A stretch of 64,000 nucleotides of DNA, from assembly GCA_963750165.1 (NCBI GenBank), contig CAVVPN010000004.1:608001-672000 (forward strand), written 5' to 3'. The translations under genes and the position numbers were made by a program. How positions within the stretch are numbered: position 1 is the stretch's first letter; each line of letters starts with the position of its first letter. Below are positions 45,401 to 64,000 of this stretch, one piece after another. The notes beneath the pieces were generated by a model. That model made no database searches. It had not been told where the DNA came from and saw only the letters and a list, made by a program, of their open reading frames with translations. This DNA is from an uncultured Gemmataceae bacterium. GTDB lineage: Bacteria > Planctomycetota > Planctomycetia > Gemmatales > Gemmataceae.

Positions 45401-48400
45401 GAGCTTGAACGTGTGCGGCTGGCTCAGGGCGGTCAGGTTCGCCACCGTGATGCCGGCCAGGCTGGCCGAGAGGCCATCGGTCGTGTTGATGCTGCTGTTG
45501 GACAGCGTGAAGTCGGCGTTCTTGGACAAAATCAGCTTGTCCGGGTTGCCGGCGAGGCCGGCGCCGGCCAGCGCCGCGCCGTAGGTCCAGCCGCTCAGGT
45601 CGAAGTTGTTGCCGCCGCCGGTGGCCGTCAGGATGGCCATGTTGAAGCCGCCGGTGCCGGTCAGGCTCAGCGTCTTCGAGGTCGTGGCGGTGGCGATGGT
45701 CAACTGGGCCGGTGTCGTCGCGTTGGTCAGCGTGTAGCTGTTGGGGCCGACGGCCTGCACGGCGTCCGGCGTGGCCGTGGTGCCCGGCGTGGTGCCGCTG
45801 GCGTTGGTCAGCGTGCCGGTGCCGGACCAGCTGTTGAGCGCGAAGGTGTGGCCGCCGGTGGTGTCGGTCAGGTTGGCCGTGGTGATGCCGGACAGCGTGA
45901 AGGTCTGGCCGTTGTCGCTGCGGACCAGCTGAGTGTTGCTCAGCGTGAAGTTGGCCGGGCCGGAGTCCACCACGGTGCCGGCGGTGTCGGTCAGCGTGCC
46001 CAGGCTCGACCAGCCGCTCACATCGAAGGTGGTGTTGCTGCCGCTCAGCTGGGCGGCGTTGACGTTGCTCAGGGTGATGGTCGCTGCCCCCTGGCTGGTG
46101 CCGCCGCCGCTCGGCGTACCCGAACTGGTCAGACCGGAGTTGGTCAGCGTGTACTGCGTCACCGGGGCGTTGGCCACGATGGTGTTGACCACGGTGCCGG
46201 CGCCGCCGATGAACGAGATGCCGCCGCCGGTCGCCGGCAGGTTGTACGAGGTCGTCGTGTCGGTCAGCGTGGTGTTGGTCGCCGCCCCGCCCAGCACCTT
46301 GAAGAACTCCAGCTGTGCCGCCGCCAGCGACTGGATGGTCACGGTGTTGGTGGTCGGCGTGTTCGGGTTGGCGTTGTCGCCGAACAGCAGGTCCACCTCC
46401 TGATCGTTGCCGAAGAAGTCCGTGAAGGGCAGGCCGCCGATGGTGCCAGCCAGCCGGTTAAAGTGGCCGTCGGTCAGGCCGGCGCCGGTGATGGCGTTCT
46501 GGTCCGCCTGCGACAGACTGGCCAGGGCTGGGCTATCGACAGTCACCACGTCCGTGTTGCTTGGCAGTGAAATAATGACGGGCTGGGTTGCCAGCTGGTT
46601 GAAGAAGTACTGGGACATGGGTGTGGGATCCTGACTGTTCGTAAAGTTGATGGTCTGCGAGCGGCCGCCGCTGACGACCGTGATCCGGCCGCTGCTGGGG
46701 TTCGTCGCACTGGGCGAGTAAGTCACACTGCCGCCGCCGTTGATGACGAGCGCGTGGTGGCCGCTCGGGCCGCCGTTGAAGTTGATAATCGGGGTCACCA
46801 GGCCGTAGGTGTTGTCAATCGTGAGGACGTTGTCGCCGCCCAGGCCCTGCACGGTGATCGAACCGATGGCGGTGCTGACGCCGTCGAACAGCACGACACC
46901 GTTCATGCTCAGCTCCACCAGGTTGCCGCGCATCCGCACCGTCCACTGCGTCACCGCGGCCGGCGCCATGTCGGAGGAGTTGTTGTCCAGCAGCACGTTC
47001 AGCAACCCGCCCGCGGCCGTCACCTGGTTGAAGCCGGTGTAGCCCAGGGGCTGGTAGGCGGTGGAGCCGGGCACCGTCAGCGTCGCCTGGCCGGGGCCGG
47101 TGATGTGCAGCAGGTTCGCCGGCAGGTTCGACAGGTCCAGGCTCAGGATCTTCGGGACGCCGGTGGGGTTCGGCAGCGTGCTGGCGTCGATCTCGGTGAC
47201 GGTGCCGGGGCTCGGGGCCGCCACGCCCACCGGCGTGGCGCCGTAGACCGGGGCCAGCTGCACGTTCATCAGATCGACCGACTGCAATTTGGCGGTCCAG
47301 CCGATCACCTGGCCGGACGCCGACAGCAGGTTCGGCAGCAGGCGGAACAGCGTCTGTGGCGTCGGGCTGGTGATGGTCGCGGTGTGGGTGCCGCCGGCGA
47401 CGCCCTGGTCCTCGATGAGCACCACACCGCCGCCGCTGAGCACGATGTTGTACAGGTCGTTGCTGCTGCCGCCCTGGAGCAGCAGGGTGCCGAGCAGGCC
47501 GTTCGTCGGCCCCACCGGGTTGAAGGTCCGGCCGTCCACGTTGAAGGTCGCCGTGCCGCCGTTGGCCGCGTTGCCCTGGAACACGGTGGTGCTGCCGGCC
47601 AGGGTTGTCTTGATGCCGAAGGTGTCGTTGCCCGTGGCGGAGCCCACCAGCGTGATGCCGCTGCCGGTGGCCGGGTCGAAGAAGGCGCCGCCGGGAGCCG
47701 CCGTGTAGTAGATCGCCGCCGGGGCGAAGCCGGTGACCTGCTGATACACCTGGCCGGCCACCGTGGCGGTGGTTTGCAGCACGTTCGGGCTGCCGGGGCC
47801 GCCGTGGTTGTTGATGACCAGGCGGTTGCTGCTGCCGCTGCCACCGACGAGCGTCAGGGTGCCGAGGATCAGGTGCAGGTCATAGTCCCCTGTCGGCACC
47901 TTGTTGGCATCGACGGCGTTCGAGGCGACGTTGAAGGTGACGCTGCCGTTGCCGCCCCGGATCAAGGTGGTGCTGCCGGCCAGCGTGCTGCGGACGTTGA
48001 AGCTGTCGCCGCCCAGCGCCGCGCCCTTCAGCAGCACGCCGTCGTTGGTTGTGCCGTCCAGGAAGGCGCCGCCAGTGGCCGTGTAGTCGATCGGTGCCGG
48101 CGCGAAGCCGGTGATCTCCTGGACGCTCTGCGTCTGGATGACGGCGCCGCCCTGTGTCGAGTTGGCCGTGACCGTGAAGGCGGTGCCGTCCAGGTGCGTC
48201 AGGATGACCGTGTTGCCGGTGACGAAGGCGGTGAAGTTCGCGGTGCCGGCCAGTTCCGCCGCCAGGTGCTGGGCCACGTCGGCGCCGGTGTCGCCGGTCT
48301 GCACCGTGTAGGACACCGGCCCGGCCAGGGTCGTGGTGTTGGTGCCGTCCTTCAACGTCACGGTCCAGGTGTCGCCCACGACCACGGCTGCCGGGATGGT

Positions 48401-51400
48401 CAGCGTCTGGGTCATCGGACTGGCGTCCTGCGTGACCGGGCTGGTGGCGTAGCCGCCGTAGTTGCTGACGATCAGCCGGTTGGCCGGGGCGCTGCCGCCG
48501 TTGATGACCAGTCGGCCCTGCACGCCGAGCAGGTTGCCATCGCCAGGCGCCGTCGAGGACACCGTGATGTTGCTGTTGCCGACGCCGTTCTGGATCGTGG
48601 TCACCGTGTTGGCGTGGGTGCCCTGGACATTGAGGTTGTCGCCGGCCACGCCGAGCAGCAGGTTGACGGCGCCGAAGTCGTAGTAGTTGATGCCGGTGGT
48701 GCGCGTGTCCAGCGTCAGGGTGCCGGCCAGTTGCGTCGTGTCGATGTCGGCCGGCGTGATGACCTCGGTGGCGTTGCCGTTCACCACGCTGAACTGGCCG
48801 CGGAAGGTGATGAAGAAGACGTTGTCGTACTTGGTCACCGCGAAATTGTCGGTGAACGGCAGCGCCGGGTTGGTGTTGTTCGGGTTCAGGATCGGGTCGA
48901 GGGCGTTGAACAAATCCTGGGCGCTGGCGTTGTAGGCGACGGCGCCGGTGGTTTCGATGGAGTCCGTGTTCGGGTTCAGCAGCTTGATGGCGAAGCTGCC
49001 GCCGGTGGCGTTGACGGTCAGTGTCTCCACGAGGTTCTGCGGCGGCGCCGTGGTGCCGTTCTGCACGACGGTGGTGGTCACGCTGACGGGGTTGCCCGGC
49101 CCGGCCACCAGGCCGGTCAGCGGCAGCAGGTCGCCGGCGCTGCTCGACTCGGCCCACTGCAACGGAGCGAAGTCGCGGCCGGCGCGGGTGTTGGTGAACG
49201 TGATGGTGAAGGTCACGTTCTTGACTGTGCGGTCCTCGGTGACGGCGATGTCGGTGAAGCCGTACAGCGTCGCCAGCTTCTGTTGCAGCACGGCGGCCGA
49301 GTCGGTGTAGTTCAGGGTCACGGTCTGGTCGCCGCCAAGGACGGCGCCCGCGGCGGCCGGCGTCAGCGCAATCGTGAAGGCCGCCCCGTCCAGCCGGCTG
49401 ATGACGATGGTGTTGCCGGTGACGAACGCCGAGAAGTTCAGAGCTTTGCCCAGCCCGGCCGCCAGTTGCTGGGCGACGACGGCGGGTGTATCGCCGGCCT
49501 GCACCGTGTAGGCCACCGGCCCGGCCAGCGTCGTGGTGCCCGAACCGTCCCGCAGCGTTACGGTCCAGGTGCTGCCGGCGTTGACGGCCGGCGGCAGCAG
49601 GATGGTCTGCGTCAGGCCGGTGACCACCGTGGCGGCGCCCGGTGTCAGGCTGACCGTGTAGTCCACGGCGGTCTGCTCGATGGCGACGACGGTGTTGCCC
49701 TTGGCCACGGCCGCGATCCCCGTGAGGCCGTTCAGTGCGGCGGCCAGGCCCTGGGCCACGGCCGGCAGGTCGTCGCCGGTTTCCGCGACATAGCTGACGG
49801 TGCCGCCCGGCGTCAGCGTCAGCGTCCAGGTGGCGCCCGCGGTCACCGTGCCCTGCAGCGTGATGACCTTGGTGATGCCCGCGACCGGTGCCGTCAGCTT
49901 GTAGGTGCCGCCGTTCGCCTGCACCACCAGCGTCTGCACCTCGGGCACCGCCGGCATGTTCAGGCCGGTGAGCGTGGTGCCGGTCAGCGTGCCGGTGTAG
50001 TGCGTCTGGCTGCCGCTGTCATCGATGTTGAGCACGTCCGCGGGGTTGCCGCCGACCACCGTCAGCAGCGAGGAAATCTGGTCGATCTGCGGCGTCGCGC
50101 TGCTGACGTTGACCGTGCTGGCGCCGGTGCCGGCGTTGATGGTCGTGTGGCCGGAGATGGTGTTGACGTTGAAGGTGTTCTGGCCGCCGCCGCCGTAAAC
50201 GTTGGTCGCGCCCGTGCTGGTCGATTGCACGTTGAAGGTGTTGTTGCCGGTGCCCAGGTAGACGTTTAACACGTCGATGCCCTGGTAGGTGATGCCGCCG
50301 TTGAAGGCGGTGCCGGCGATCACCGTGTCGCCGCCCATGCCCAGGCCGGTGATCTGCGTTGCGGTCAGCGTGCCCGTGTCGTTGGACGGGCTGTGGTTGT
50401 TGAAGACGTTCAGCGTGTTGGTCGATTGCGACTCCGCCACGGTCGTGTTCGGGTTGAACGGAGCGTAGTAGTACAGGGTGCCCGGCGTCGCGGTCGTGGT
50501 GGTCGTCGGCCATGGCGCCGCGAAGGTCACCTCCGTGCCGGAGATGACCGGCGTGAAGTCGCTGTGGAACTGGCCCTTCAGTGCCAGGATCACCGAGGCG
50601 ATGGTGTCGGTGCTCTGGACCTGATACGTCGCCGTTTCGGGCGTGTTGCCGGGATACTGCAGACGGAAGACCCAGGTGGAGCCGACGGCCCCCGGCGTCG
50701 CCAGCACAATCGCGGCCTGCGTCCATTGCACGCTGCTCCCGGCGGCATACAGCGATGCCAGTGTCGGGTCGCCGGAGAAGATGACGCCGCCCTGCGTCGG
50801 GCTGCCGGCGGGCGCCTCGGTGATGTCGAAGTGGCCGGCGCTGATGGCCGCGCCGTTCTTGCGGGTGATGAGCAGATACGCCTCGCCCAGCAGGCCCGTG
50901 CGCTGCTCGACGTTGTACGGCGTGGCCGTGGCGCCGAGCACCGCCGCCAGGTCCGCCGCCACCAGCGACACCACGTTCCGGTTCGGGGCCACCGTCACCG
51001 AGTAGGTCGTGCCGTCCAGCGTGAGCGCCCAGACCTCGCCCACGGCCGGCGTGCCGGTCAGTTGCAGGATCAGTGTCCGCCACTGGAGCGTCGCGCTGAC
51101 GAAGTTGTCGTAGTTGTTGCCGGTCGTCGGATTCTGCACCGGCGTGCCGATGAAGCGGGCAGCGCTGTCCGACGGGGCCACGCCGTTCTGCGTGAAGCTG
51201 ACGGTGAAGGGCACCTGCACGCCGTTGACCGTCTTGGCGCCGACGGAGAGGATGTCGCCCGAGGTCGAGGCCACCGGCAACTGCACGTTCGTGGCCGGGC
51301 CGTTCAGGAACGTGATCGAGTACGAGTAGCTGTTCATGCGCGGGTCGAACCCGGGTCGCTGGCCGGCGTCCTGGCTGACGAACGTGGCGTTCGGGTCGGT

Positions 51401-54400
51401 GATGGTCGCCCGGCCGCGGATGGCGAACGACAGCGTGATCGGGTTCAGGCTCGCCAGGCTGACGGTCACGGTGACGCCCGACGCCGTGGCGTTGACCAGG
51501 CCGCTCTGCATTTGCAGCGCCAGGCCGGCCGCGATGTCCGCCAGCTGGTCGTTCGGCTTGACCGTGTAGCTGAACGTCGGCGAACCGCTGAGCGACGGAA
51601 TGGTGGTCGTCCAGACCTCGCCCACGGCCGGCGTGCCGCCGAGCGTCAGCAGGGCCGTCGCCGGGGTCGGGTAGGTGACAGTGCCCGTGCCCTGCGTCAC
51701 CGAGCCGACCGTGGCCACCGAGCCGTCGGGCACCAGGAAGTTCGTCTCGCCCGGCAGCAGCACCGGGTTGTTCAGGAACTGATCCTGGCCCACGAGCACG
51801 CCGCCGTCGATGGTCAGCGGGCCGCGGATGCTGTTGACGCGCTGATCGGGCGCCGGGAACACCAGGGCGTCACTGCCCTCGACAACGTTGTACGGGTCGT
51901 AGGCGGCCACGGTCACGGTCTGGGCCAAGTTCCAGTTGGCGTGCGTGAACACCAGTTGCGGCGTCAGCGTCGCACCGCCCAGGCTGTCCGGCGAGATGCC
52001 GAAGGCGAAGGTCATGGGGCCGCCGTCGAAGCGGTTGATCGTGAGGACCAGGCCCAGGACGCTCACGTTGTAGGTCGTGGTCGGCACGGCGGCGGCCAAC
52101 CCCGCGGCCACGTCGGCGAGGGCGTCGCCGAACTGCACCGCGTAGGAGTAGGTCACGCCACCCAGCGTCAGGCTCCAGGTCTGGCCCAGGATCGGGAAGC
52201 CCGTCAAGCCCACCTGGACCTGTTGCAGCGTCATGGCGCCGTCGTGCGGGTTGATGGGGTTGCCGCCGGTGTCGCTGAGGCTGGCCTGGAAGGTGCCGGC
52301 GCGCGTCACATCAAGGGCGTTGCCGTTCGTCGCGTCCACCACCGCCGAGTATGGGCCGCTCAGGGCGCTGATGAGCCGCACCAGGCCGCGGGCCACCGTG
52401 TTCAGGTTGTCGCCGGCCTGCACCGTGTAGGTCACGACCACGTTGGCCAGGCCCGGGGCGGTCAGCGTCACGGCCCACTGCTGGCCTGCCGCCGGCGTGC
52501 CAGCCAGCTGCAGCGTCTCGGTGATGTTGGCGCCGCCCTGCTCCGTCTGGATCGGAGTCGTGCCGCCCGTTGGCACCTTCAGGATGGCGAAGTGGCCAAA
52601 GAACGCCGCGTTGACGCTGGCGGTGTTGCGGATGACGAAGGTGTCAGCCGGCAGCCCCGTCGTGCTCGTCGTGTAGTCCTGCGACGTGAACGGGCTCTGG
52701 CCCAGTGCCGCCATCAGCCCGGCCATCACCGCGGCCAGCGGGTCCGGCGCCATCATGTCGGCGGCGGTCATCGTGTAGGCGGCGGTCAGCGTCGCGGTCG
52801 AGTCGTTCGCGATGTAGCCGGCGGCATTGGTCAGCGTGATGGTCCAGGTCTCGCCAACGGCCGGCGTACCGGTCAGCGTCACCTGCAAGTTCGGCGTGGC
52901 CACCTGCACCTCGGCCTGGCCCATGCCGTAGTTGGCTCTCGGGTCGAAGGCCAGCTGCGAGTTGTAGGTCGTCGTCAGCTGCGGCGACACGTTCACCGTC
53001 ACCGGGTTGGTCGGCTGGGCCGTCAGCACCACCGTGTAGGTGTCGGTCACCGGGCTGTTGCTCGTGAAGCTGGAGCCGTACTGCGTGATCGGGTTGAAGG
53101 AGATTTCAAACTGGTCGGTCGCGGCCGGCAGCGGATTCCACGCCTGGTTGACGGTGTATTCGTTGGTCGCCGGGTCGTAGCCCGTGATGACCGCCGACTC
53201 GCCCTTGGCGGCGCCGGTCAGGATGGTGATGGTCTTGCCCACCAGGTCGATGGCCGCCGGGTTGGTCGGGTGACCCGGCAGCGACATGTTCAGCTGGTAC
53301 GCCAGCCCGCCGGGCACATACGGCAGATACTGATCGGGCAGGAAGCCGTCGGCGTAGTGCAGGACCGAGGTCACCTCGATCTGGTAGTTGCCGGCATAGG
53401 TGAACAGGTACTCGAAGTAGGCGTCGAGCGTGGTTGCCTTGGTGCTGGAGGCTGCCTCCTGGATCGTGACGCTGCCGGCGGTCAGGCCCGTTGTGTTCAC
53501 CTGCACCGGCACCGGCTCGGCCGTGGACGAGGTGCCGGTCACGACGAAGCCGATGAAGTACGGCCCGTTGCCGCGCACCAGCGCTGTCGTGCCGCTCGGC
53601 AGGATCAGTTGCAGGGCGCTCTGAATCGCGGAGTCGTCGAGGCCGGCCACCGGGATCGCGGCGGTCGTGGCGCCGTTGTAGCTCAGCGTGAACGAACCCG
53701 CGGCGTCGCTGCTGACGCTCAGCTCCTGGAAGTTGGTCGTCAGGTTGCCCAGCGGCACGAGGTCGGTGGCGCCAGGGGCCGACGGGCCGTACAGCGTGAG
53801 CACCGGGGTGATCGTGTAGCTGTGGTTGACGATCACCGGGTACGAGAACGTGATGCCCAGGAAGCTGAAGGTCTGGTACGTGATCGAGGGCGTCGAGCCG
53901 TTGACGGGCGTGGTGTTGTTGGTGTCAAAGACGCCCAGCAAGGAGCCGCCGCCGCGGCTGAAGTTGGACAGGGGCACGACGAACGGAATGTTCGCGGTGG
54001 CCGTCACCTGGAAGGCCGCCCCCGTGGTCGCGAGCGTGGCGTCGAAGATCAGGGGCGGGCCGGTCTGGTTGCCGGGGTAGCTGGGGTTGTTGATGTCACT
54101 GACGAACGCCGCGGCGATGGTGGCCGGCGTGATGTTGTCCCGCTGCGGGTGCGCCGACACCATGTAGGTGTAGGTGTGGCCGTCGATGGTCAGTGTCCAG
54201 ACGGCGTTGGCCACGATCACGCCCGTGCCGCTCGGCAGGGTCACGGTCACGTTGAGGTAGTGGTCGCGGGTGTCCGGCGTGTTGCTGGTGTTGGTGTACG
54301 CCACCCGATCCTGCTCGACCGGGCCGACGCTCACCGCGCTGCCGTCCGTGGCCACGACCAGCAGGTTGCCGTCCGGGCCCACGCTGGCGTTGACCGAGGC

Positions 54401-57400: not shown

Positions 57401-60400
57401 GCTGGTCGCGCCGACGAGGTTGAAGCCGCTGTCGGGCTGCTGAATCTCCAGCGTGTCCATCATGCCGTCGCTGCCGTTGACGATGGTCAGCGTGAAGCGG
57501 CCCGGCGTCATCGTCTGGATCGCGTGCTCCAGCCCCACGGCGACGGCGTGGAGGTCGTCCCCCATCAGGGCGGTGTAGGTGTAGGTGTGGTCGCTCAGGC
57601 CGAGTGTGAACACGTCGTTGGCGTGAACCGTCCCGTTCAGCTGCAAGTACGCCACGGTGTAATACGTGCCGGGGGCGTCCGGGGTCGAGAGTGCGCCGGG
57701 GCTCGGGTTCACCATGTCGGGCGTGATCGTGAACTGGTAGTAGGCCGGGGCGTTGCTGCCGGCGCCCTGGATCTTCACGTAGGGCGTCTGCGAATCGATG
57801 GTGCCGCCGAGGTTGGCGTTGCCGAGGGTCGGATCGTAGAAGGTGAAGAAGTTCGTGCCCGACGGCGGCGCGCCCATCGTGTTGCTCGTCGGCGGATCGA
57901 CGATCTGCGCGGTGGCCGGCGTCGTGTTGTTCGCGCTCTGCGACACGGCCTGCGGCGCGAACAGGAAGCCGTCCACCGGGTGCTGCGCGATGGACACCTG
58001 CAGGACGTAGTTGACACCGGCCGGCACGCCCGCGGAGTTGAACGGGAACCAGGCGGTGACGACGAGGTAATACGTCGCGGGCACCGTGCCCTTGAAGGTG
58101 TAGGTCAGGCGGTCGTCGAGCCACCACGAATTGCTCGGGCCCTTGTAGGCGGGGTCGGAGTAGCCCGGGCCCTCGGCGATCAGGTTGCCGGCCTGATCGA
58201 GCAGTTCGAGCCGGCTGGCCCAGAAGACCGAACTGGCCGCGCCGCCTTCCATGTCGAAGATGGCCTGAATGCCGTTGGGGCCGGCATTGTTAATCATGTC
58301 CTGCGTGATCGTGAACGAGTAATAGTCATTGGCGTTGTGGCCGGAGCCGAGCACGGTCAGGTGCGGCAGCGTCGTGGACTGCTCGATGGTCGGGTCGGCG
58401 TTCTGGTTCCACTTGCCGGCGTCGAGGTTCTGGGCGGTGTAGATCGAGTCGTGACTCTGCACCGCCTGCAGCACTGAGGTGCCGAAGTTGCCGGTGAAGT
58501 GCGTGTTCACGTCCAGGGTGGCCGTGCCGCCGAAGGTGTGGGCGGCGTTAATCACGGCGACCAGGGCCTGGGCCAGGCTCGTCGGCGTGTAGTTGCCGCC
58601 GGGGACCGTGTACGTCTGGCCGTCCAGCGTGATGCTGTACGGCTGCCCGTTGTTGACCGTATCGACCAGCACCACGGCGGTGGTGAAGGCGTCCGGCGTC
58701 GGGTTGCCCGTGAGGATCAGGCCCGCGCTGCTGGTCGAAACCCGCGAGACGCCGCCCGGGTTGCTCGGGTTGGCCGTCAGGTCCACCGCCGCCGTGATCT
58801 GGCTGACGGTGCCGTTGCCCAGCACGACGTTGCTGGTCGGCTCGATGACGTTGGTCGAACCGTTGCTCTGCTGGATGAGCACGCCCGGCGTCTTGTTGTC
58901 GGTGATGGTCACGTCCACGGAGGCGGGCGTCAGCGTGTCGTGGTTCTGCCCGGCGGTGAAGCCGTACAGGGCCGAGGAACCGCCGATGCCGTAGTTGTTC
59001 AGCGTCAGCACCCATTGCGTGCCCTGCGGGATGCTGACCGGCATGGTGATGGCCGACAGGTCCAGCACCAGCGTCACCCAGTAATTGGCGCTCGGCGTCG
59101 CGCTGGTGAACGACGCGGCGGGGGTCACGACCGTGCCATTGACCTGCGTCTGGCTCACGGTGGCGCTGAAGGGCGCCCCTTCCAGCTGGACCGTGCCGCC
59201 CGCCGCCAGCACTGCGGTGCCGCCGAACGGTCCGCCGGCGATGGCGTTGCGCAGCTGACTGGCCACGGTCGCCAGCGTGTCCCCGGCGACGGCCGTGTAC
59301 TGATACGTGTGTCCGTCCAGCGTCAGCGCCCACACCTGGCCGGCGCTGACGGTGCCGCTGAACAGCACGGTCGCCGTGGCGAAGGCCGACGCCTGCGGCA
59401 CACTGGTGATGGTGATGCCCGGCGTCGTGCTGCTGATGCTCGACGTGCCGTTCGCGTTGCTCGTGCTGCTCGTGAGCAGCACCGACGGATCGACGAAGGG
59501 ACCGCTCAGCGCCGCCGTGCCGCCGAAGCCGCCCGTGGTGATCGCGGCGTGCAGCTTGCCCGCGACGGTTTCCAGCGTGTCGCCGGCGGCGGCCGTGTAG
59601 CTGTACGTCTGGCCGTCCAGGGTGATGGCCCACACCTGGCCGGCGCTGACACTGCCCGTGAACAGCAGAGCCGCCGTGCTGAAGGCCGCCGCGTTGGGCA
59701 GGCCGGTGATGGTGATGCCCGCCGTCAGGCTGCTGACACTGGACAGGCCGCCGACGTTGGCGGGGTTGGCGGTCAGGTGCAGCACTGGTCCGGCGTAGGC
59801 GTCGTTGCTGATCTCGTTCAGCAGCGCCTGGGCGATGGTTTGCAGCGTGTCGCCGGCCACCGAGGTGTAGCTGTACGGCACGCCGTCCAGCAGCAGGCCC
59901 CACGTCTGGCCGCTGATGGTGCCGTTGGCGTTGATGGGGGAGAAGGTCACCAGGGCGTTGCTGAAGCCGCCCGCGGACGGGCTGGCGGTGATGGCGATGC
60001 CGCTCGTGGTCGCCTGAATGCTGGACACGCCGCCCGGGTTGGCCGCGTTGGCCGTCAGGCTGATCGTCACCTGCAGCAGCTTGACCGTCAGCGTCGCGCC
60101 GCTGGCCGTTGCCTGGTACGGCAGGCCGGCGGTCGTGACGGCAGCGGCCAGGCCGGCGGCCACCTGGGTCGGGCCGTCGCCCATGACCGCGACATAACTG
60201 ACTTCGCTGCCGTTGAGGTTCAGCACGAAGCGGTCGCCAGTGGTGACCGCGTTGGTCAGCGTCACGGAGGCGCTGCCGTCGAACGCCTTGACGGAACTGC
60301 CGTCGATGCTCGCCGAGAAGCCGGCCGGCGTCTGGAAGTCCGCGAGGGTGAAGCGGAACACCGTCGGGTTGCTGATCGTCACCTGGCTGCCGGTCGCGGT

Positions 60401-63400
60401 TGCTGTGTAGTTGTTGTTCAGGTCGCGGTTGATCGACGTGGCCAGGCCCGTCGCCACATCGGAAAGGTTCAGGGCCAGGTACGCGGTCAGGTTGCTGGCG
60501 GTTGGGTCGATCACCGTCTGGATGCGCGAGTAGTGCGTGCCCTGCACCTCGGTGCTGGTGACCGCCATCACCGTGATGATGACCGGCACGTCCCAGTTCG
60601 CCGGCGAGAAGGTCACCGTCTGGTTGGCGGCGTTGTAGTTCGCGGCGGCCGACGACACCGTGACCTGGCCGTCCGTGACGACATCGACAACGACGTTGGT
60701 GGTCGGCTGCTTGGTGAGCACCAGGGCGTAGGTGGCGGAGGCCGGGTTGCCGCCGGGGCCCTCGGCGACCACGGTGCTGGTGGTCGGCGTGTTGCCGTTC
60801 ATCGGCACCACCTCGACGCTGGCGGCGTGGTTGTCGTACACCTGCACCGCCACCGACGGCACCACAATGCCGTTGTACGGGTCGCCGTCGGAGGCGTTGG
60901 CGCCCTCGGTCACCGTCATGAGGATGTTCAGGGAGCGGTCGCCGGTGGCGATGCCGTCATCCGGCGCCGTGACAGTGACGGTCTGCGGGATGAACCAGTT
61001 GGTGCGGTCGAAGATCAGGGTCACGCCGGTGGCGCTGCCGTCGAGCAGGATGTTGCTGACGCCCGCGCGCTGGTCCTGGGCCGAGAGCGGTGCCGGCGTC
61101 GCCGTGATCCGCACCGGATCGACCGGCGCCTGCGTCAGCACCACCGTGTAGCTGTTGACCACCAGGTTCTGACGCGGGTCGGTCGGCGACCAGCTGGCGC
61201 CGCCCTTGAAGATTTGCAGCGGCCCATTCGGCAGTGACACGACCACGCCCGCCGTGTCCTTGTCGGCCACGTAGGCGACGACGCTCTGGTCGTAGCTGCT
61301 GCCGAACGCCGAATCGGTGCCGGAGGCTGTGATGGTGTGGTCGATCAGGGCGCTGTAGCCGTTCAGGCTCTGGCTGACGACCGTGATGGGTTGGCCGTCG
61401 CCGGTGCCGCCGACGTTGAAGATGTCGCTGCCGAGACCGCCGACCAGCTCCACGTCCACGCCCTGCGGCGTGCTGGCGATGTCGAAGATGTCGTTGCCGG
61501 CCTGGGCGTCCACGACCAGCTTCTGGATGCCAGTGTAGGTCACGTACAGGCCGGCGCCGAAGATGCCCTGGTCGGTGACGACGTAGGTGTCGCCGAAGTC
61601 GGTGCCGACCACGACCACGGTGTTGAAGCCGGTGCCGCCGATGATGTGCACTGGGGCGGTCACGTCGTAGGTGATGAAGTTGGCGCCCTTGCCGCCGTTG
61701 ATGTTCGTGAACGGCGCCTTCGGGTCGTTCGGGTTTACCTTGACGAACGCGTGGATGCGGAAGGTGTTGGTGCCGTCGCCACCGAACAGGAACAGCTCGG
61801 CCAGGTGGTTGTAGACCGTGAAGTCGCTGTCGCCCTGGCCGCCCTGGATGGTCGTCACGAAGCTGGCGCCGTTGGTCAGGAAGCCCGCGGTGGTCTGCGT
61901 CGTCTGGTAGTAGTCCAGCGGGTCCAGGCCGTTGTTGGGGTTGCTGCCGTCGCGCGGCGACTTGAACACTTCGCCGATCTGGTAAGTGTCATTCCCGGTG
62001 CCGCCGAAGATATTCGTCTTGACGAGGTTGTCATCCATCACGACCGTGCTGTTGCCGCCGCCCAGGTACACCGCCAGGCCGCCGGTCAGCGACGGGTCGT
62101 AGTTGACGCGCTCGAAGAATGAGCCCGGCCCGTCCAGCGGGTTGTTGGCGGCGTCCACCGCGTACATGGCGACCACGCCCGTCTTGGCCACCTGGTTGGC
62201 CCGCAGCAGGAAGAAGTCGTTCTGCAGCCGCGTGCCGTAGATCTGCAGCTGGTCGATGCCCAGTTCGTTCTGCGGGTTCTGGTCCTCGACGTTGATGACC
62301 GAGTTGACCGGGCTGCCGGAGGCGCCGAGCACTGCCAGGCCGATCTGGTACAGCTCGTTGCCGGTGCCGCCCAGCAGCGTCAGCGGCGCCGTGATGCCGT
62401 TGACGTAGGTTTGCTTGCCGTTCTGGTCGTAGTTGACGCGGAACACGTCATTGCCGCTGCCGCCCTCGATGGTCGTCGGCTCGCTCACCGTGTTGATGTT
62501 AAAGGTGTTGCTGACCTCATCCGGCCCGGCGACGGTCGCCTTGCTGGCCTGGATGTCGAGGAGCGGCGTGCCGCTCGTGGAGGTGCCCTGCGGCGTCGAG
62601 GCGATGTACAGGTTGTTGTGGCCGCTGCCGAGCAGCAACTGCAGCGTGTGGAAGTTCAGGTAGTGGACGCCCAGCGTCATGCCGAAGCCGGTCAGGTCCG
62701 TGGCCGTCAACTCGCCGGCGGCGCCCAGGGCGTTGCCGCTGTCGTACAGTTGCAGGGCGTCGTTGCCGCTGCCCTGGAGTGTCAACAGGCCGTTCTGCAG
62801 GCCGCTCAGAACGCTGTTCTGCTGCACCGGATCGGTGAAGCTGGTGCCGCTGCCGACGCGCACCGTGCTGCCGGCGCTGCCGCCGCCGGTGTTGATGTTG
62901 GTGTTGCCGGCGATGGTCTCGATGTTAATGGTGTTCTGACCACCGCCGCCGTTCACGTTGGTCGTCATCGCCACGGACGGGCTGCCGGCCGTGCTGTGGA
63001 TCGAGTAAACGTTGCCGCCCTGGCCGAGATTCACGTTCAGCTGCTTCAGGTTGTAATACGCGATACTGCCGCTCGGGCCGAACAGCTGGCCGCGGCCGCC
63101 AACCAGCGTGGCATTGCCCGCCGTGGTGACGGTGTTGGTGATGGTGGTGGCGGTCATCTCGGCAGCGCGGCCGATGGTGTCGCCGGTGTCGTCCACGGAC
63201 ACCATGTCAGCGTGGTTGCTGCCGCCGTTGATCGTTAGCGGGGCCAGCACGCCGAACTGATCGCCGTTCAGCAGACGGTACTGCGAACCGGTCAACGTCA
63301 GCGGGTAGGTGGTCCCCTGGACGTTGATGAAGTTCAGCTGGCCGGGCGTCTGCATGCCGTTGGCGGCCACCTGCCACAGGCCCGCCTTGCTGCCGACCGC

Positions 63401-64000
63401 GATGGTGTCGGTGCCGTTGGCGTTGATCGTCGTCGGGCCGGGGACCGTTTGCAGGGCGATGTTGTCCGTGCCCTTCGCCGCGGTCGTGATGACCGTGCTG
63501 CCGGTGAAGTTGTAGGTCGAGGCCACCGTGAAGGTGTTGGTGCCAATGCCAGTCGCGACACTGACGACGCTGCTGGCCGGGTTGAGGTTGGCGAAGTAGA
63601 CGGTGCCGGAGGTCGCGGCCGTCACCATCACACCGCCGCCGGTCAGGCCGGAGCCGTTCGCCGTCAGCAGGGCCACCGCCGTCACCAGCGTACCCTGGAA
63701 CGTGACCGTCCACGGGCCGCCGTTGGGGCCGGTCACCGCCACGTTGCCGATGCCGATGGTCGGCAGCCCCGCCAGGGTCGATTGCACCGTCGCGGCGGTG
63801 GCGTTGAAGGCGATCGGGGCGCTGGTCTGGCCGCCAAGGCTCAGGGTGAAGCTGCCGGCCGTCGGGCTGCCGGTCAGGGTGACTTTCTGCACGGTGTTGA
63901 TGGCCTGCGGCACCGCCGGGTTGTTCGGCTGCTCGGAGATGGTCACGCTCTGATACAGTTTGACCACCTGCACCGGGTCTGCGGCGGTGAAGTACGCCGG
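39455..64000 (-). CDS. Giant repetitive surface protein/adhesin (>8180 aa, 5' end outside window) with C-terminal DUF4214-like domain
   Basis: Uninterrupted ORF to the window edge (PAYFTAADPVQVV...); T/G/A/V/S/N-rich; beta-solenoid-like repeats, Calx-beta/cadherin-like and PPC-like domains; C-terminal LY..VLGR / Y..YLGR / LY..LLNR helical repeats at 39455-40085. Confidence 0.93.
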   Translation of the reverse strand, partial: PAYFTAADPVQVVKLYQSVTISEQPNNPAVPQAINTVQKVTLTGSPTAGSFTLSLGGQTSAPIAFNATAATVQSTLAGLPTIGIGNVAVTGPNGGPWTVTFQGTLVTAVALLTANGSGLTGGGVMVTAATSGTVYFANLNPASSVVSVATGIGTNTFTVASTYNFTGSTVITTAAKGTDNIALQTVPGPTTINANGTDTIAVGSKAGLWQVAANGMQTPGQLNFINVQGTTYPLTLTGSQYRLLNGDQFGVLAPLTINGGSNHADMVSVDDTGDTIGRAAEMTATTITNTVTTAGNATLVGGRGQLFGPSGSIAYYNLKQLNVNLGQGGNVYSIHSTAGSPSVAMTTNVNGGGGQNTINIETIAGNTNINTGGGSAGSTVRVGSGTSFTDPVQQNSVLSGLQNGLLTLQGSGNDALQLYDSGNALGAAGELTATDLTGFGMTLGVHYLNFHTLQLLLGSGHNNLYIASTPQGTSTSGTPLLDIQASKATVAGPDEVSNTFNINTVSEPTTIEGGSGNDVFRVNYDQNGKQTYVNGITAPLTLLGGTGNELYQIGLAVLGASGSPVNSVINVEDQNPQNELGIDQLQIYGTRLQNDFFLLRANQVAKTGVVAMYAVDAANNPLDGPGSFFERVNYDPSLTGGLAVYLGGGNSTVVMDDNLVKTNIFGGTGNDTYQIGEVFKSPRDGSNPNNGLDPLDYYQTTQTTAGFLTNGASFVTTIQGGQGDSDFTVYNHLAELFLFGGDGTNTFRIHAFVKVNPNDPKAPFTNINGGKGANFITYDVTAPVHIIGGTGFNTVVVVGTDFGDTYVVTDQGIFGAGLYVTYTGIQKLVVDAQAGNDIFDIASTPQGVDVELVGGLGSDIFNVGGTGDGQPITVVSQSLNGYSALIDHTITASGTDSAFGSSYDQSVVAYVADKDTAGVVVSLPNGPLQIFKGGASWSPTDPRQNLVVNSYTVVLTQAPVDPVRITATPAPLSAQDQRAGVSNILLDGSATGVTLIFDRTNWFIPQTVTVTAPDDGIATGDRSLNILMTVTEGANASDGDPYNGIVVPSVAVQVYDNHAASVEVVPMNGNTPTTSTVVAEGPGGNPASATYALVLTKQPTTNVVVDVVTDGQVTVSSAAANYNAANQTVTFSPANWDVPVIITVMAVTSTEVQGTHYSRIQTVIDPTASNLTAYLALNLSDVATGLATSINRDLNNNYTATATGSQVTISNPTVFRFTLADFQTPAGFSASIDGSSVKAFDGSASVTLTNAVTTGDRFVLNLNGSEVSYVAVMGDGPTQVAAGLAAAVTTAGLPYQATASGATLTVKLLQVTISLTANAANPGGVSSIQATTSGIAITASPSAGGFSNALVTFSPINANGTISGQTWGLLLDGVPYSYTSVAGDTLQTIAQALLNEISNDAYAGPVLHLTANPANVGGLSSVSSLTAGITITGLPNAAAFSTAALLFTGSVSAGQVWAITLDGQTYSYTAAAGDTLETVAGKLHAAITTGGFGGTAALSGPFVDPSVLLTSSTSNANGTSSISSTTPGITITSVPQASAFATATVLFSGTVSAGQVWALTLDGHTYQYTAVAGDTLATVASQLRNAIAGGPFGGTAVLAAGGTVQLEGAPFSATVSQTQVNGTVVTPAASFTSATPSANYWVTLVLDLSAITMPVSIPQGTQWVLTLNNYGIGGSSALYGFTAGQNHDTLTPASVDVTITDNKTPGVLIQQSNGSTNVIEPTSNVVLGNGTVSQITAAVDLTANPSNPGGVSRVSTSSAGLILTGNPTPDAFTTAVVLVDTVNNGQPYSITLDGQTYTVPGGNYTPTSLAQALVAVINAAHTFGGTATLDVNTHFTGNFGTSVLQAVQSHDSIYTAQNLDAGKWNQNADPTIEQSTTLPHLTVLGSGHNANDYYSFTITQDMINNAGPNGIQAIFDMEGGAASSVFWASRLELLDQAGNLIAEGPGYSDPAYKGPSNSWWLDDRLTYTFKGTVPATYYLVVTAWFPFNSAGVPAGVNYVLQVSIAQHPVDGFLFAPQAVSQSANNTTPATAQIVDPPTSNTMGAPPSGTNFFTFYDPTLGNANLGGTIDSQTPYVKIQGAGSNAPAYYQFTITPDMVNPSPGALSTPDAPGTYYTVAYLQLNGTVHANDVFTLGLSDHTYTYTALMGDDLHAVAVGLEHAIQTMTPGRFTLTIVNGSDGMMDTLEIQQPDSGFNLVGATSTTLGVTQDILDAGTVSRQTNALQTAAFGGTVMVDTVAATLTLTAAPTNPTGTSSVAEATGTTGIAIMATPSATAFTSATLTLSGTVSAGQLWSIVLDGVTYSYIATGSDTLGTIATHLQSAITGGKAAIFFSTATLTLSGTVAAGEDWFLEVNGRGYMAPTTTGSSTLNSIATALAAALNADGSANVTAGASGTTLTLTAGSNFWFTVGTAILGNSPRELVGIAGTPAPTEFANIKWTMVNFAITSPPRTGETWTVTLGGVPYSYTVQASDTTSADIATGLKNAIPTSYTRSTSGAVLTVSSATAFTATLTVTPAGAVDTTHVTTTPTTQSVQLTGPVNAGDTWTATLATDVTASVMAGSVVNGVTLSTLADIAGGLAYQINTTLTGYAASANGANLVVVRPSGTAFTLAVAITPVGTLTSATGHGAILVTVPAPASASDTWYLSVFDHTGAFVGQAQASGSTAAGLAAALTTAFNGVAALSGYVASNGPGTPGVLVLALDPTQTFTVQLSLTPAAVANQSANSSNQVIPISQSDVNGGDTWSVTITQGTMMYGPFNVMVGSTGSLMSRTNQLANALAADLNISATFTAFATNSGTNHSITVTGLMTGTPYTISVIVNPGMSQTDLSSTVDISPANVFASLLTLQTTPIHTGDMWSVTLTQGATTMTSASYPVVMGDMYTNIASGLAPLLQAVTGLPAMTTLTVQANGPTLVAVESGTGAASFTLTLNIEPAGAVGSAQPSATLTLTGPVSAQDTWHVKLDNNNSGQNVANFPVVTSSMSPSAVVTGLTSQLLAVPGMYVAVARGNQIAVTQVGGFDFTSTLQTQVISADTAPANTTTTAKITLTGPANSGDTWNLTVDGTTYPQTVGTSSATASTVATELAALAVGTQTDRTAVEVDTTVGMVTYSTIYLTLFPSTATPALSFSVTRNSTVATDTVSGTPPTAVQQSVAAQSPSAAGDAWTVTVNGTPVSFTATAAGFANVVSGLVTAINGRHLTVASGASVNASVGPDGNLLVVATDGSAVSVGPVEQDRVAYTNTSNTPDTRDHYLNVTVTLPSGTGVIVANAVWTLTIDGHTYTYMVSAHPQRDNITPATIAAAFVSDINNPSYPGNQTGPPLIFDATLATTGAAFQVTATANIPFVVPLSNFSRGGGSLLGVFDTNNTTPVNGSTPSITYQTFSFLGITFSYPVIVNHSYTITPVLTLYGPSAPGATDLVPLGNLTTNFQELSVSSDAAGSFTLSYNGATTAAIPVAGLDDSAIQSALQLILPSGTTALVRGNGPYFIGFVVTGTSSTAEPVPVQVNTTGLTAGSVTIQEAASSTKATTLDAYFEYLFTYAGNYQIEVTSVLHYADGFLPDQYLPYVPGGLAYQLNMSLPGHPTNPAAIDLVGKTITILTGAAKGESAVITGYDPATNEYTVNQAWNPLPAATDQFEISFNPITQYGSSFTSNSPVTDTYTVVLTAQPTNPVTVNVSPQLTTTYNSQLAFDPRANYGMGQAEVQVATPNLQVTLTGTPAVGETWTITLTNAAGYIANDSTATLTAAYTMTAADMMAPDPLAAVMAGLMAALGQSPFTSQDYTTSTTGLPADTFVIRNTASVNAAFFGHFAILKVPTGGTTPIQTEQGGANITETLQLAGTPAAGQQWAVTLTAPGLANVVVTYTVQAGDNLNTVARGLVRLISALSGPYSAVVDATNGNALDVTRAGTFQASLSDTGGNPINPHDGAMTLQQVQVGLTGFPILGQTWSLTLGGVTYSYAVQFGDALADVAAGLAAAVPTTTYNVSVLGLVLTINRFDGGPMTFAFGISPDSLGGATLTPQLVFTHANWNLAQTVTVAAYDPYNVVEGSDALVFPAPDQRVNSIRGPLTIDGGVLVGQDQFLNNPVLLPGETNFLVPDGSVATVGSVTQGTGTVTYPTPATALLTLGGTPAVGEVWTTTIPSLSGSPTFSYTVKPNDQLADIAAGLALQMQSGLVNATASGVTVTVSLASLNPITLSFAIRGRATITDPNATFVSQDAGQRPGFDPRMNSYSYSITFLNGPATNVQLPVASTSGDILSVGAKTVNGVQVPFTVSFTQNGVAPSDSAARFIGTPVQNPTTGNNYDNFVSATLQWRTLILQLTGTPAVGEVWALTLDGTTYSVTVAPNRNVVSLVAADLAAVLGATATPYNVEQRTGLLGEAYLLITRKNGAAISAGHFDITEAPAGSPTQGGVIFSGDPTLASLYAAGSSVQWTQAAIVLATPGAVGSTWVFRLQYPGNTPETATYQVQSTDTIASVILALKGQFHSDFTPVISGTEVTFAAPWPTTTTTATPGTLYYYAPFNPNTTVAESQSTNTLNVFNNHSPSNDTGTLTATQITGLGMGGDTVIAGTAFNGGITYQGIDVLNVYLGTGNNTFNVQSTSTGATNVYGGGGQNTFNVNTISGHTTINAGTGASTVNVSSATPQIDQISSLLTVVGGNPADVLNIDDSGSQTHYTGTLTGTTLTGLNMPAVPEVQTLVVQANGGTYKLTAPVAGITKVITLQGTVTAGATWTLTLTPGGTVSYVAETGDDLPAVAQGLAAALNGLTGIAAVAKGNTVVAIEQTAVDYTVSLTPGAATVVTGLTQTILLPPAVNAGSTWTVTLRDGSGTTTLAGPVAYTVQAGDTPAVVAQQLAAGLGKALNFSAFVTGNTIVISRLDGAAFTIALTPAAAGAVLGGDQTVTLNYTDSAAVLQQKLATLYGFTDIAVTEDRTVKNVTFTITFTNTRAGRDFAPLQWAESSSAGDLLPLTGLVAGPGNPVSVTTTVVQNGTTAPPQNLVETLTVNATGGSFAIKLLNPNTDSIETTGAVAYNASAQDLFNALDPILNPNNTNPALPFTDNFAVTKYDNVFFITFRGQFSVVNGNATEVITPADIDTTQLAGTLTLDTRTTGINYYDFGAVNLLLGVAGDNLNVQGTHANTVTTIQNGVGNSNITVSSTAPGDGNLLGVQGRLVINGGSAPANRLIVSNYGGYATSPVTQDASPMTQTLTIPAAVVVGDTWTVTLKDGTNTTTLAGPVSYTVQTGDTGADVAQHLAAELAGTANFTAFVTGNTVILTHLDGTAFTVTANSTQGGAVIQTQSVQEITGFAPAPIDYTATGGAFLDGTTNDGVLLKGAALGGDSFNVRSTLAGSTTLIRGGNGSVTFNVASNAVDANKVPTGDYDLHLILGTLTLVGGSGSSNRLVINNHGGPGSPNVLQTTATVAGQVYQQVTGFAPAAIYYTAAPGGAFFDPATGSGITLVGSATGNDTFGIKTTLAGSTTVFQGNAANGGTATFNVDGRTFNPVGPTNGLLGTLLLQGGSSNDLYNIVLSGGGVVLIEDQGVAGGTHTATITSPTPQTLFRLLPNLLSASGQVIGWTAKLQSVDLMNVQLAPVYGATPVGVAAPSPGTVTEIDASTLPNPTGVPKILSLDLSNLPANLLHITGPGQATLTVPGSTAYQPLGYTGFNQVTAAGGLLNVLLDNNSSDMAPAAVTQWTVRMRGNLVELSMNGVVLFDGVSTAIGSITVQGLGGDNVLTIDNTYGLVTPIINFNGGPSGHHALVINGGGSVTYSPSATNPSSGRITVVSGGRSQTINFTNSQDPTPMSQYFFNQLATQPVIISLPSNTDVVTVDSPALASLSQADQNAITGAGLTDGHFNRLAGTIGGLPFTDFFGNDQEVDLLFGDNANPNTPTTNTVTIQSLAAAQLEFFKVLGGAATNTTLTDTTTSYNLPATGGGISFIGGAGTVVNTIVANAPVTQYTLTNSGLTSSGTPSGGGTSQGAATITLSNVNAAQLSGSNTTFDVSGWSSLGTLTDTAGTVVDSGPANFTLSNTQLVRSDNGQTFTLSGITTANLTDTTGGHTFALNSWSGTGTLTNASGTTPGTTATPDAVQAVGPNSYTLTNATTPAQLTIATATTSKTLSLTGTGGFNMAILTATGGGNNFDLSGWTYGAALAGAGLAGNPDKLILSKNADFTLSNSSINTTDGLSASLAGITVANLTALSQPHTFKLDNINGTSHWTGTGTLTSNGGTGTLVASRDADFTLTNTTLSSTDGMALTLNNTNGNINVANLSAINNAHTFNLSNAGGTWTGTGSLSNNVGSGTVAATKNADFTLTNTSLAASDGLSMSLAGFGTANLTVNTAAHAFNLDNANGKWTGHGALTASGVAGTINSTRNADFTLANGSLNTSDGLSLTLSGITIANLTATTTAHVFNLDNTAGSDHWTGTGTLTSTGGTGTINVTRNADFTIASGSLSTSDGMAMTLNNSNGNLKVANLTALTTAHTFTLDAGNDHWTGTGHLVNASGSGTLNVTRNADFTLASGSLNLSDGTSMTLTGFGVANLASLVSPHNFALETVVGSTPDRWTGTGSITGSGGGTVISTRDANFTLVNGKLSASDGLNMTLSAINTANLTVINAAHTITLDTVNAATPDKWTGSGILAASGTGASGTVVTTRDANFTLVNGSLSASDGLAVTLSNIGAANLAVINNPHTITLDTPNAPTPDRWTGGGTLSATGAGASATVISTRDANFTLVNGSLSATDGLNIGLSNVGAANLTVISHPHTFTLDNANGSDHWTGTGSLTGYQVAGTVVVNRDADFFLANGSLSTLEGVAQTPGMSMTLSGITVANLLGATHAHTFTLNNAAGTDLWTGTGTLTSNVTGSTVRAAGAAGFTLTNTKLSSSSGLSMTLVGAFATANLADTAGNQTFDVSGWTAGGTLANASLPQVGDTVVAVKAAGFTLGNTSLTASDGLTLALVGLFNKANLTDTQGGNTFDVSGWTHGGTLANTPSNPADKVTAVKAAGYTLTNTSLSSTDGMGVTLSGPFTTANLTDTAGGNTFDVSGWTHGGKLTNTTSNPVVPDTIVANKPAGFTLGNGSITSTDGMSLTLVGAFGTANITDAAGGHTFDVSTWTGAITLVNASSSPVVPDILVSSKAAGYTLTNTSLTSTDGLSLTLVGPFSTANLTDTAGGNTFTVSGWTGSGSLTDSGATPDTVTMSSGGDYTLTNTSLTSTTGLNLTLSGIGTANLTETAGGHTFTVSGWTGTGSLTDSAAMADTVLASKAGGFTLSDTNLSSGTMSLTLSNVKTATLTDTQGGHTFTVSGWTGTGSLTDTAAMPDTVAASSAGGFTLTNASLSSGTMSLTLTNVKTANLTDTAGGNTFTVTGWTNTGSLSNTGATPDTVTMSSGGDYTLTNTNLTSTTGLNLALSGISTANLTETAGSHTFTVSGWTGVGSLTDTAATADKVVANKAGGFTLSNTNLSSGTMSLTLTNVKTANLTDTQGGNTFTVSGWTNTGSLSNTGATSDTVTMSSGGDYTLTNTSLTSTTGLNLTLSGVGTANLTETAGGHTFTVSSWTGGGSLTDTAATADTVIASKAGGFTLTNASLSSGTMSLTLTNVKTANLTDTKGGNTFTVTGWTGGGSLSNTGATPDTVTVSSGGDYTLTNTNLTNTSGLTLALSGIGTANLTETAGGHTFTVSGWTSGGSLTDTAATADTVIASKAGGFTLSNTNLSSGKMSLTLTNVKTANLTDTQGGNTFTVGGWTGTGSLTDSAATADTVVASKAGGFTLSDTNLSSGTMSLTLTNVKTATLTDTQGSWTFTVSGWTGTGSLTDSGTMADTVIASKAGGFTLSNTNLSSSKMSLTLTNVKTANLTDTQGGNTFTVDGWTGTGIITGTANDTLAATKDVTTFTLSSTGVLSTTDGMQLNLTRIGTVNLTGGPSNNTFSVVPSPVTTVNVNGGPQVIADTLTFDAQGNPVSFGPSSVSAGGTTVAFTNIEKLNFPPTTLNANQRYIQSLYFDVLGRLGTVSELNAWANTLPTNPSTNQLLNVVTAVEHTTEARTHLVDGWYVTYLGRQAQNGEEQTWVNLLAAGQTEDQVLSQIFATAEFASHANALIGGTNANTNYVKALYQLLLNRTPSTAEVNNVLPDVTSLGRAGLATAFVDGQEYRTDQVSADYIRLLHRQGGTAEVSGWATSSLNLQTIRFGLESSGEFYTNG
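40440..43400 (-). repeat. Intragenic tandem repeats of ~62-63 aa (186/189 bp) in the giant gene
   Basis: The marker ttgacgtt recurs at 40500, 40686, 40872, 41247, 41622, 41997 and 42183 (spacings 186, 186, 375, 375, 375, 186). Unit: TFTVSGWTGTGSLTD...ASKAGGFTLSNTNLSSGTMSLTLTNVKTANLTDTQGGN. Confidence 0.92.

Follow-up and report, generated by a model that had tools for sequence, protein, structure and literature searches.

The window analyzed here is a 64,000-nucleotide stretch of a contig from an uncultured Gemmataceae bacterium (G000:C4:608001-672000; coordinates below are window positions unless C4 is given). Its minus strand at 39455..64000 carries the 3' part of a giant gene, 8,181 codons of an open reading frame (ORF) that is still open at the window edge. 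We propose, with a probability of about 0.75, that the product is a giant fibrillar protein, secreted and exposed on the cell surface, which most likely serves as an adhesin and in which a beta-roll stalk carries a branching hub of Calx-beta-like domains. The branched reading, in which inserts would loop out of host domains that close across them, is well supported by sequence comparison and by predicted models. Two arms are nested to a depth of four levels, counted from the stalk downward. Somewhat less firmly, we favor the view that the protein belongs to a widespread unnamed family of single-chain dendritic fibers, whose triangular Calx hub would be locked across 3,100 residues and whose bristles would be mobile modules derived from phage tails.

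Nested architecture of the giant protein

The initial annotation, made from the sequence alone, had proposed that Calx-beta-like, PPC-like and stalk repeats are intact at some places and split elsewhere by long inserts. Self-comparison recovered the split halves, and together with a gap table of homologs it located every listed split where it had been predicted. All features below lie on the minus strand and are named in the order of the chain. A module B resembling tail-sheath and major-tail proteins (63611..63904; PHROGs tail sheath phrog_2839, E 4.5e-17) sits in the 'G..G.I.Y' turn of the stalk repeat. The RTX (repeats-in-toxin)-like beta-roll block of the stalk (61397..61945) opens the Calx cassette in its last loop, after GGLGSD.F.VGG. 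The cassette starts with FG0, a lone F-G strand pair (61253..61387; HHalign to the F-G pair of Calx1, 95.2%) that would be the N-terminal part of a circularly permuted domain, X. It is followed by the intact Calx-beta-like copy 1 (Calx1, 60824..61252; previously placed at ~60830-61260) and by strands A-F of copy 2 (Calx2, 60500..60823), which are seen in the model of the query Calx2. The insert of Calx2, 527 amino acids (aa) between anchors and earlier estimated at ~515 aa, is opened by the C-half of a circularly permuted module A, which begins at the helix (60281..60469; positions 50-113 of the hidden Markov model, HMM), continues with four intact tandem module A copies (59126..60277), and is closed by the N-half of the permuted module (58955..59116), after which the G strand of Calx2 returns (58889..58927). 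The two halves would pair with each other; the N-half is the conserved last position of this insert across homologs, and both halves are directly joined in P0012.

Calx copy 3, which would be the remainder of domain X, is split twice, as had been claimed. Strands A-A' (58838..58888) are separated by 1930 aa from strands B-C (52892..53047; self-comparison and anchor profiles). These are separated by 310 aa, with three module A copies in the C-D loop (51962..52891; module HMM and gap table), from strands D-E (51869..51961), which are not followed by an F-G pair, the chain going back to the stalk. The 1930-aa insert holds a small beta-barrel, D, whose N-part (58481..58837) is interrupted by one permuted module A (58505-58798) and whose C-part lies at 53093..53251. 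Between them are PPC1, an intact PPC or collagen-binding-domain (CBD)-like jelly roll (57977..58480, close to the earlier ~57980-58460), and its split paralog PPC2. The PPC2 N-part (57707..57976; BLAST to PPC1, E 3.6e-7) is separated by an array of 12 module A copies in one loop (53945..57679; 727-1593 aa in 26 homologous rows, shortest in L038) from the C-part (53261..53944; HHalign to the PPC1 C-part, 99.8%), which is interrupted in turn by a module B at 53453-53728. The gap of 1257 aa and the second module agree with the ~1250-aa split and further module reported before. The small barrel appears intact by eye at other sites in P0109, P0131 and P0143.

The other stalk inserts were likewise found as annotated, with minor shifts of their borders. 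They are a small domain D2, split by one plus two module A copies (50444..51721; similar to D by eye), a pair of module B copies in one stalk turn (48704..49948), the first of which (B') is interrupted at HMM position 24 by a pair of module A copies (49337-49885), and a single module A in a stalk turn (48137..48421; 117 aa in the query versus 17-50 aa in 6 homolog matches).

Arm 1 leads from the stalk through domain X (FG0 and Calx3), Calx2 and the permuted module A to four module A copies, and arm 2 from the stalk through X, D and PPC2 to twelve copies of module A and one of module B. Shallower paths run from the stalk through X to three copies of module A, through D2 to module A, and through B' to two copies of module A. 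Nesting as such stood, but the three levels counted before missed the level of barrel D; the permuted three-unit cassette and the phage-sheath likeness of the repeated inserts had also been overlooked. The hosts are indeed split in the manner of Russian dolls, but the repeated inserts are mostly intact beads in tandem: each long insert strings such beads together inside one loop, and the tree ends in bead arrays, not in ever deeper dolls. Recursive nesting of the inner module A copies in Calx2 was considered and dropped, as one inner copy aligns contiguously to a single phage domain. At residues ~2400-2580 of P0012 we observed by eye a module A inside the post-helix loop of another module A, which makes a fifth level.

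Split sites and insert-free homologs

The beta-roll/Calx region, used as a phmmer query, had 3,783 matches, 41 of which were checked for colinearity, and a genome scan yielded 80 loci. Anchor profiles found the same halves in the same order across loci. Because this order recurs in dozens of homologs from many phyla, the splits are not due to chance. Natural insert-free homologs exist for every site but the large PPC split, for which there is only an intact paralog. Fifty rows were aligned for the gap table, and rows without either anchor (2 to 25 of 50) were dropped before each count; gap values of 105 and 253 for L039 are alignment artefacts, and the layout of this locus was taken from the anchor-profile map. 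The Calx2 F|G gap is reduced to 11-17 aa in 6 of the 40 rows with both anchors, and elsewhere measures about 200, 320, 440, 550 or 660 aa, in steps of ~110 aa. The A|B gap of Calx3 is 3-6 aa in 10 of 48 rows and about 270 aa in two, and strands A-A' and B are also joined in P0066. Only 4 aa are found at the Calx3 C|D site in 2 of 36 rows, with more such cases in the anchor-profile map. The first insert of barrel D (102 aa in the query) corresponds to 8-25 aa in 14 of 36 rows, and the second PPC2 gap, at the module B site, is 164 aa in the query versus 44-108 aa in 25 rows. Intact references for the split PPC2 are the paralog PPC1 and the single PPC of L060 and L062.

In the stalk, module B at 63611-63904 is missing from 19 of 23 homologs and D2 from 15 of 50, the first D2 insert from all 46 and the second from 5 of 35; the stalk B cassette (48704-49948) is missing in 13 of 39, the B' split in 24 of 25, and module A at 48137-48421 in all 6 homolog matches of the pattern. 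Five of the inserts occur in few homologs or in the query alone, and their accretion is therefore recent.

Distribution and evolution

Titles of the 80 loci span Verrucomicrobiota, Actinomycetota, Pseudomonadota, Chloroflexota, Planctomycetota, Desulfobacterota and others; these phylum labels are those of the record titles, and some labels of metagenome-assembled genomes may be misbinned. Cultured carriers include Yoonia litorea DSM 29433, Roseateles albus hw1, Mangrovicoccus sp. HB161399 and Pelagicoccus sp. SDUM812005. Among 60 related genomes only 2 have a strong match (E below 1e-30), and the giant protein thus seems to be patchily distributed. The homologs form a graded series. The simplest have no cassette (P0118) or only the ring (L067-L080, P0066; 514 aa at 10283-11824 of L069), intermediate ones have the ring, D and one intact PPC (L060, L062, P0068), more complex ones add the split PPC2 (L042, L058, L059), and the last contain all inserts.

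The core tree (FastTree, 80 rows, 455 columns, midpoint-rooted) has weak inner support (0.16-0.67). The 16 rows without PPC form one clade with support 0.97, and the single-PPC pair L060/L062 is the first branch among the other 64 rows. Locus L039, deep within the arm-bearing clade, has cleanly lost the whole D/PPC arm, and five rows with an intact Calx2 lie among insert-bearing rows. Arms have probably been both gained and cleanly lost; given the weak inner support, the order of gains is only suggested.

Predicted structures

An 809-aa region of L060 with the stalk, ring, D and one PPC (three levels) was modeled with AlphaFold2 (AF2) from 54 alignment rows. The model has a mean predicted local distance difference test (pLDDT) of 85.3 and a predicted template modeling score (pTM) of 0.76; most half-domain strands are at about 87-97, FG0 at 92-95 and the late strands of domain X at 87-97. 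Residues 406-672, which include both parts of D, align as one 82-residue domain to phage baseplate 8gtc_P 160-257 (VIA-align Z 9.2, root-mean-square deviation (rmsd) 2.9), and the barrel also matches 8vjh and 8rk3. The alignment as one domain indicates that D closes around the PPC in the model. Within it, residues 430-603 match the ColG CBD 5iku (Z 11.3, rmsd 2.5, 112 aligned) and also 1nqd (Z 10.8), the collagenase CBD set 5iku, 1nqd and 3jqw giving Z 10.5-11.3 at 16% identity; PPC1 had no match to the Pfam family PF04151.

Calx2 of the query was modeled with its insert (653 aa, 54 alignment rows; pLDDT 80.5, pTM 0.62). Across model residues 5-648 the host is matched as a single domain (3ead, Z 8.0, rmsd 3.2, 103 aligned), most other structural-match rows span about 1-650, and the returning G strand and the N-half of the permuted module A have pLDDT of 91-94 and about 76-94, respectively. 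Thus in the two readable model cases, the query Calx2 and the homologous barrel D, the split hosts close across their inserts and the halves form single domains, neither half being a complete domain by itself. PPC2 may close in the same way. Foldseek searches with whole multidomain models were uninformative.

The Calx unit has a seven-stranded Ig-like fold of the CBD1 type. Calx1 of L060 matches CALX-CBD1 3ead (Z 9.0, rmsd 3.1, 107 aligned), and 2dpk is matched with Z 9.6; other Ig-like folds tie with CBD1 within 1 Z. The intact copy has no Pfam match to PF03160 at E 0.05, and we therefore use the term Calx-beta-like.

Three-unit Calx cassette

The string of Calx units is circularly permuted: it starts with a lone F-G pair, and the third unit breaks off behind strand E, where the chain re-enters the stalk. 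The 80 loci were scanned for the cassette, and 17 without its far end were left out. In every one of the remaining 63 the cassette opens with an F-G pair, counts exactly three units and lacks a closing F-G pair. Where this Calx domain forms plain arrays, its copy number varies freely (22 matches in G001, 55 stretches in P0001). The same stalk loop has only 23 aa and no cassette in P0118, and in a paralogous block upstream the corresponding loop holds a different insert of ~160 aa. The hub, 3,175 aa in one stalk slot, has G-to-A linkers of 3-5 residues between Calx units. Calx1 and Calx2 align full length and in natural order in the L060 model; as both are complete by themselves, by elimination FG0 can complete only Calx3, forming domain X. 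The three Calx-beta-like units are best read as a closed head-to-tail triangle attached at one vertex, as elimination and invariance would have it. Complex prediction with four pieces of the query domain X was undecided (0.09, with an uncertain fold of the partner) and counts neither for nor against closure.

Inserted modules and phage-tail likeness

The inner module A of the Calx2 model (residues 386-479) aligns contiguously to residues 94-184 of the cyanophage A-1(L) sheath 8kee_A (Z 13.7, rmsd 1.8, 88 aligned), with further structural matches to the T7 nozzle 6r21 and the crAss capsid chain 7qof. In a PHROGs search with five modules, module B matched the tail sheath family given above and module A weakly phrog_165 (E 0.006). 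In the ESM Atlas module A fell into unnamed clusters, besides a weak lead (0.88) to a crAss auxiliary capsid. Pfam along the gene, PHROGs on the five modules and the two folded regions did not reveal a sheath core. HHalign among C, D and D2 gave 0.6-12%, which does not establish homology, and only 35% for A versus B.

Many copies of module B are present in other large genes (C3, C4, C9, C12; 61 tblastn matches), and module A matches in this genome lie only within the giant gene. A variant of module A occurs at C4:726024-726212 and, in the window, at 57029-57300, 58505-58798 and 59126-59990, in differing circular phases and with up to 62% identity to the copy 60 kb upstream. These sequences suggest that the variant may have hopped recently within the gene. 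In L063, L064, P0006, P0068 and P0143 the same slots contain other module types, e.g. a V.VDG..L...EY.L.G repeat, and the slots are therefore interchangeable.

Proposed mechanism and alternative explanations

We propose that a calcium-binding beta-roll or beta-solenoid stalk is displayed on the cell, that calcium would stiffen it, and that its turns serve as insertion slots for modules whose ends sit together. The chain would leave the stalk with the F-G pair of domain X, pass two Calx domains and add strands A-E of X last, so that three Calx domains could close head to tail into a triangle standing on one vertex. Loops of the triangle would carry the arms: Calx2 with the permuted module A and its four beads; X with D, PPC1 and PPC2 and, in the latter, twelve copies of module A and one of module B; and X with three further copies of module A. 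PPC/CBD-like domains and bead arrays at the arm ends could provide multivalent attachment off the fiber axis. Since modules A, B and D resemble, in fold or sequence, outer domains that are inserted into sheath, nozzle and baseplate proteins of phage tails, their ends should lie close together, and modules could therefore be added, duplicated or cut out at loops with the backbone intact. We infer a branched shape in vivo, secretion, calcium binding, and adhesion via the PPC/CBD-like domains and bead arrays.

Several observations weigh against this proposal. None of the 26 rows with both anchors provides an insert-free ortholog of the large PPC2 gap, and PPC2 with its 1,250-aa array lies outside both folded regions. 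In the Calx2 model 90 of 653 residues have pLDDT under 50, and AF2 tends to complete domains if the alignment contains insert-free rows. Ring closure relies on elimination and invariance, and the FG0 count is partly selected, as loci were chosen by similarity to a query containing FG0-Calx2. In Pfam and NCBIfam scans DUF4214 was the sole name in the window ORF, with nothing above the cutoff upstream; ligand, secretion signal and transporter were not identified. In addition, the gene upstream of the window is broken by five frameshifts, at approximately C4:725055, 716000, 700860, 694680 and 674830.

The same nested and branched fold would also be compatible with a passive steric coat or decoy brush, directed against predators and phages or used for biofilm spacing, with the beads as bulk. 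The 28 A, about 16 B and 11 C module matches along the gene, the freely varying array lengths and the likeness of the modules to outer domains of phage tails would all suit such a brush. However, PPC/CBD-like domains occupy the outward spot that ligand-binding domains use in RTX adhesins, and each of the 49 proteins counted, with the query among them, retains one to three copies; we regard a passive role as rather unlikely. Less probable still is strand donation, with the orphan F-G pair and the F-G-less Calx3 complementing each other between neighboring molecules to give a cross-linked mesh. Donor-strand complementation is common in surface filaments, three straight domains would be unable to close a ring, and the poor fit of the tandem Calx1-Calx2 to solved CBD12 pairs (rmsd 9-12 Å) points to an unusual junction geometry. 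Against this, the cassette enters and leaves one short stalk loop (23 aa in P0118), the number of units is fixed at three, and both parts have high confidence in the single-chain L060 model (pTM 0.76).

Long-range reassembly would be unnecessary if the protein were a string of locally folding circularly permuted units, each F-G pair joining the next A-E strands and each helix-half the next N-half. Single permuted module A inserts (P0012; 58505-58798) do show that permutation is tolerated, but Calx1, Calx2 and the inner module A are in natural order in the models, the G-to-A linker has 3-5 residues and the Calx2 G strand returns after 520 aa; such a string is contradicted for Calx2 and one inner module A, and we consider it very improbable. 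We give equally little credence to an assembly artefact or a decaying pseudogene with unselected inserts, which the five frameshifts and the repetitive modules might indicate: 9,104 codons are free of stops, the GC content at third codon positions is 0.89-0.95 in all six gene pieces, the same half order is found in unrelated assemblies, cultured strains included, and the breaks resemble single-base indels by eye, three of the five at a CTCGAG site.

Comparison with known systems

The split domains of RTX fibrillar adhesins (AhLap, FrhA, Bp1) are the closest parallel to the dendritic fiber proposed here. As in those proteins, Ig-like and beta-roll hosts are interrupted by domains that bud sideways, inserts are placed immediately ahead of the final strands in an Ig-like host, and a beta-roll hosts a domain that itself hosts an insert (there beta-roll, vWFA and insert); the passages available on them describe at most two levels (PMC12077191; bioRxiv 10.1101/2025.09.30.679566). 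The initial annotation knew of no described adhesin nested so deeply; the split-domain principle itself had already been described in these passages. In contrast to their two levels and single ligand-binding domains, the giant protein has four levels, arms of up to 3,175 aa, a permuted three-domain ring hub and arrays of sheath-like modules. By analogy it may work like RTX split-domain adhesins, but we do not class it as one. A retention module and a type 1 secretion system (T1SS) signal were not identified, the C-terminus being DUF4214 and the N-terminal piece having no Pfam match, and no T1SS gene was found among 16 downstream-side ORFs scanned. Repeats of the GGxGxDxF type are visible and were modeled as short strands, with no RTX match in Pfam or NCBIfam.

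Contractile tail sheath proteins are described in the passages available as built of 'Russian doll' domains (PMC6088184; PMC10136805). They share domain-in-domain insertion with the giant protein, and the fold of module A is that of the domain inserted in sheaths; unlike in them, only the outer domain was detected in this cellular protein, in dozens of copies. The Si3 region of the cyanobacterial RNA polymerase beta' subunit is likewise recursive, with bifurcating insertion over six levels, and is thus deeper; the same sources, as far as available, state that single-level insertions dominate overall (PMC13114784, PMC10895346). Si3 is cytoplasmic, about 600 aa long and built of one repeated SBHM (sandwich-barrel hybrid motif) fold, and its domains are unrelated to those of the giant protein.

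Calx-beta/cadherin-like extenders of calcium-dependent adhesins (BapP, LapA) are, in the passages available, linear tandems (PMC12153261). They and NCX/CALX CBD1 share the fold (Z 8-9.6) and acidic inter-domain motifs with the units described here, whereas the three copies of the giant protein form a permuted cassette that enters and leaves one loop. The clostridial collagenase CBD shares the fold of the PPC unit, and in the giant protein a second copy is itself a host. A giant-gene survey (10.1101/2023.11.21.568195) does not mention nesting or Calx under the terms searched in its accessible text. Our literature searches, which covered main texts and few subscription papers, turned up nothing that describes this protein family or a permuted three-domain Calx ring.

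The principle is therefore known and the depth is no record; what stands out is the proposed triangular hub, together with bristles that resemble phage tails and the graded series of homologs. They extend the adhesin split-domain design from single buds to a multi-arm tree and provide a natural branching scaffold. The natural series from stalk only through ring, and ring with barrel and PPC, to the full tree makes folding and evolution testable on 500-800 aa. How a domain could be finished by strands that follow 3,100 residues further on, probably while the protein is being secreted or afterwards, is a folding puzzle. Nesting also explains why domain scans of such giant proteins come out blank.

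Gene and genome context

The ORF considered in the initial annotation (9,185 codons from stop to stop) is the tail of a much larger gene. Five more reading frames of the same style overlap end to end upstream, back to ~C4:727175. They probably belong to one gene of ~26,500 aa, the five breaks upstream of the window being long-read errors; the CTCGAG position of three of them suggests methylation-linked basecalling errors.

The C-terminal region (39458..40075, minus strand) contains DUF4214 (PF13946, E 3.1e-12), which we take to be the cell-surface anchor. The gene start carries an LEQLEDR motif, presumably the LE.LE.R N-terminus that we associate with planctomycete extracellular proteins, with no Pfam match at E 0.01. 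A motif in the N-terminal piece C4:726800-726300 (L090) presumably corresponds to autotransporter-associated beta-strand regions, again with no Pfam match. At C4:674781-725100 (L087-L090), ~14,000 aa consist of ~125-aa all-beta repeats without Pfam names, for which the ESM Atlas gave unnamed Planctomycetota clusters and low recognition. These repeats also host inserts, namely module C (6 matches) and an array of ~10 module B copies. At C4:~671900-675700 (L091 and window 63905-64000) the stalk is interrupted by a further cassette, made of hairpin repeats of the G.PV..Y.GGE type and >1,000 aa long; it contains five tandem module C copies, where homologs have none or one. On the downstream side, 3.4 kb from the giant gene, an AAA_21 ATPase gene is followed by a DUF4276 gene (34170-36013, minus strand), possibly a defense or toxin-antitoxin-type pair.

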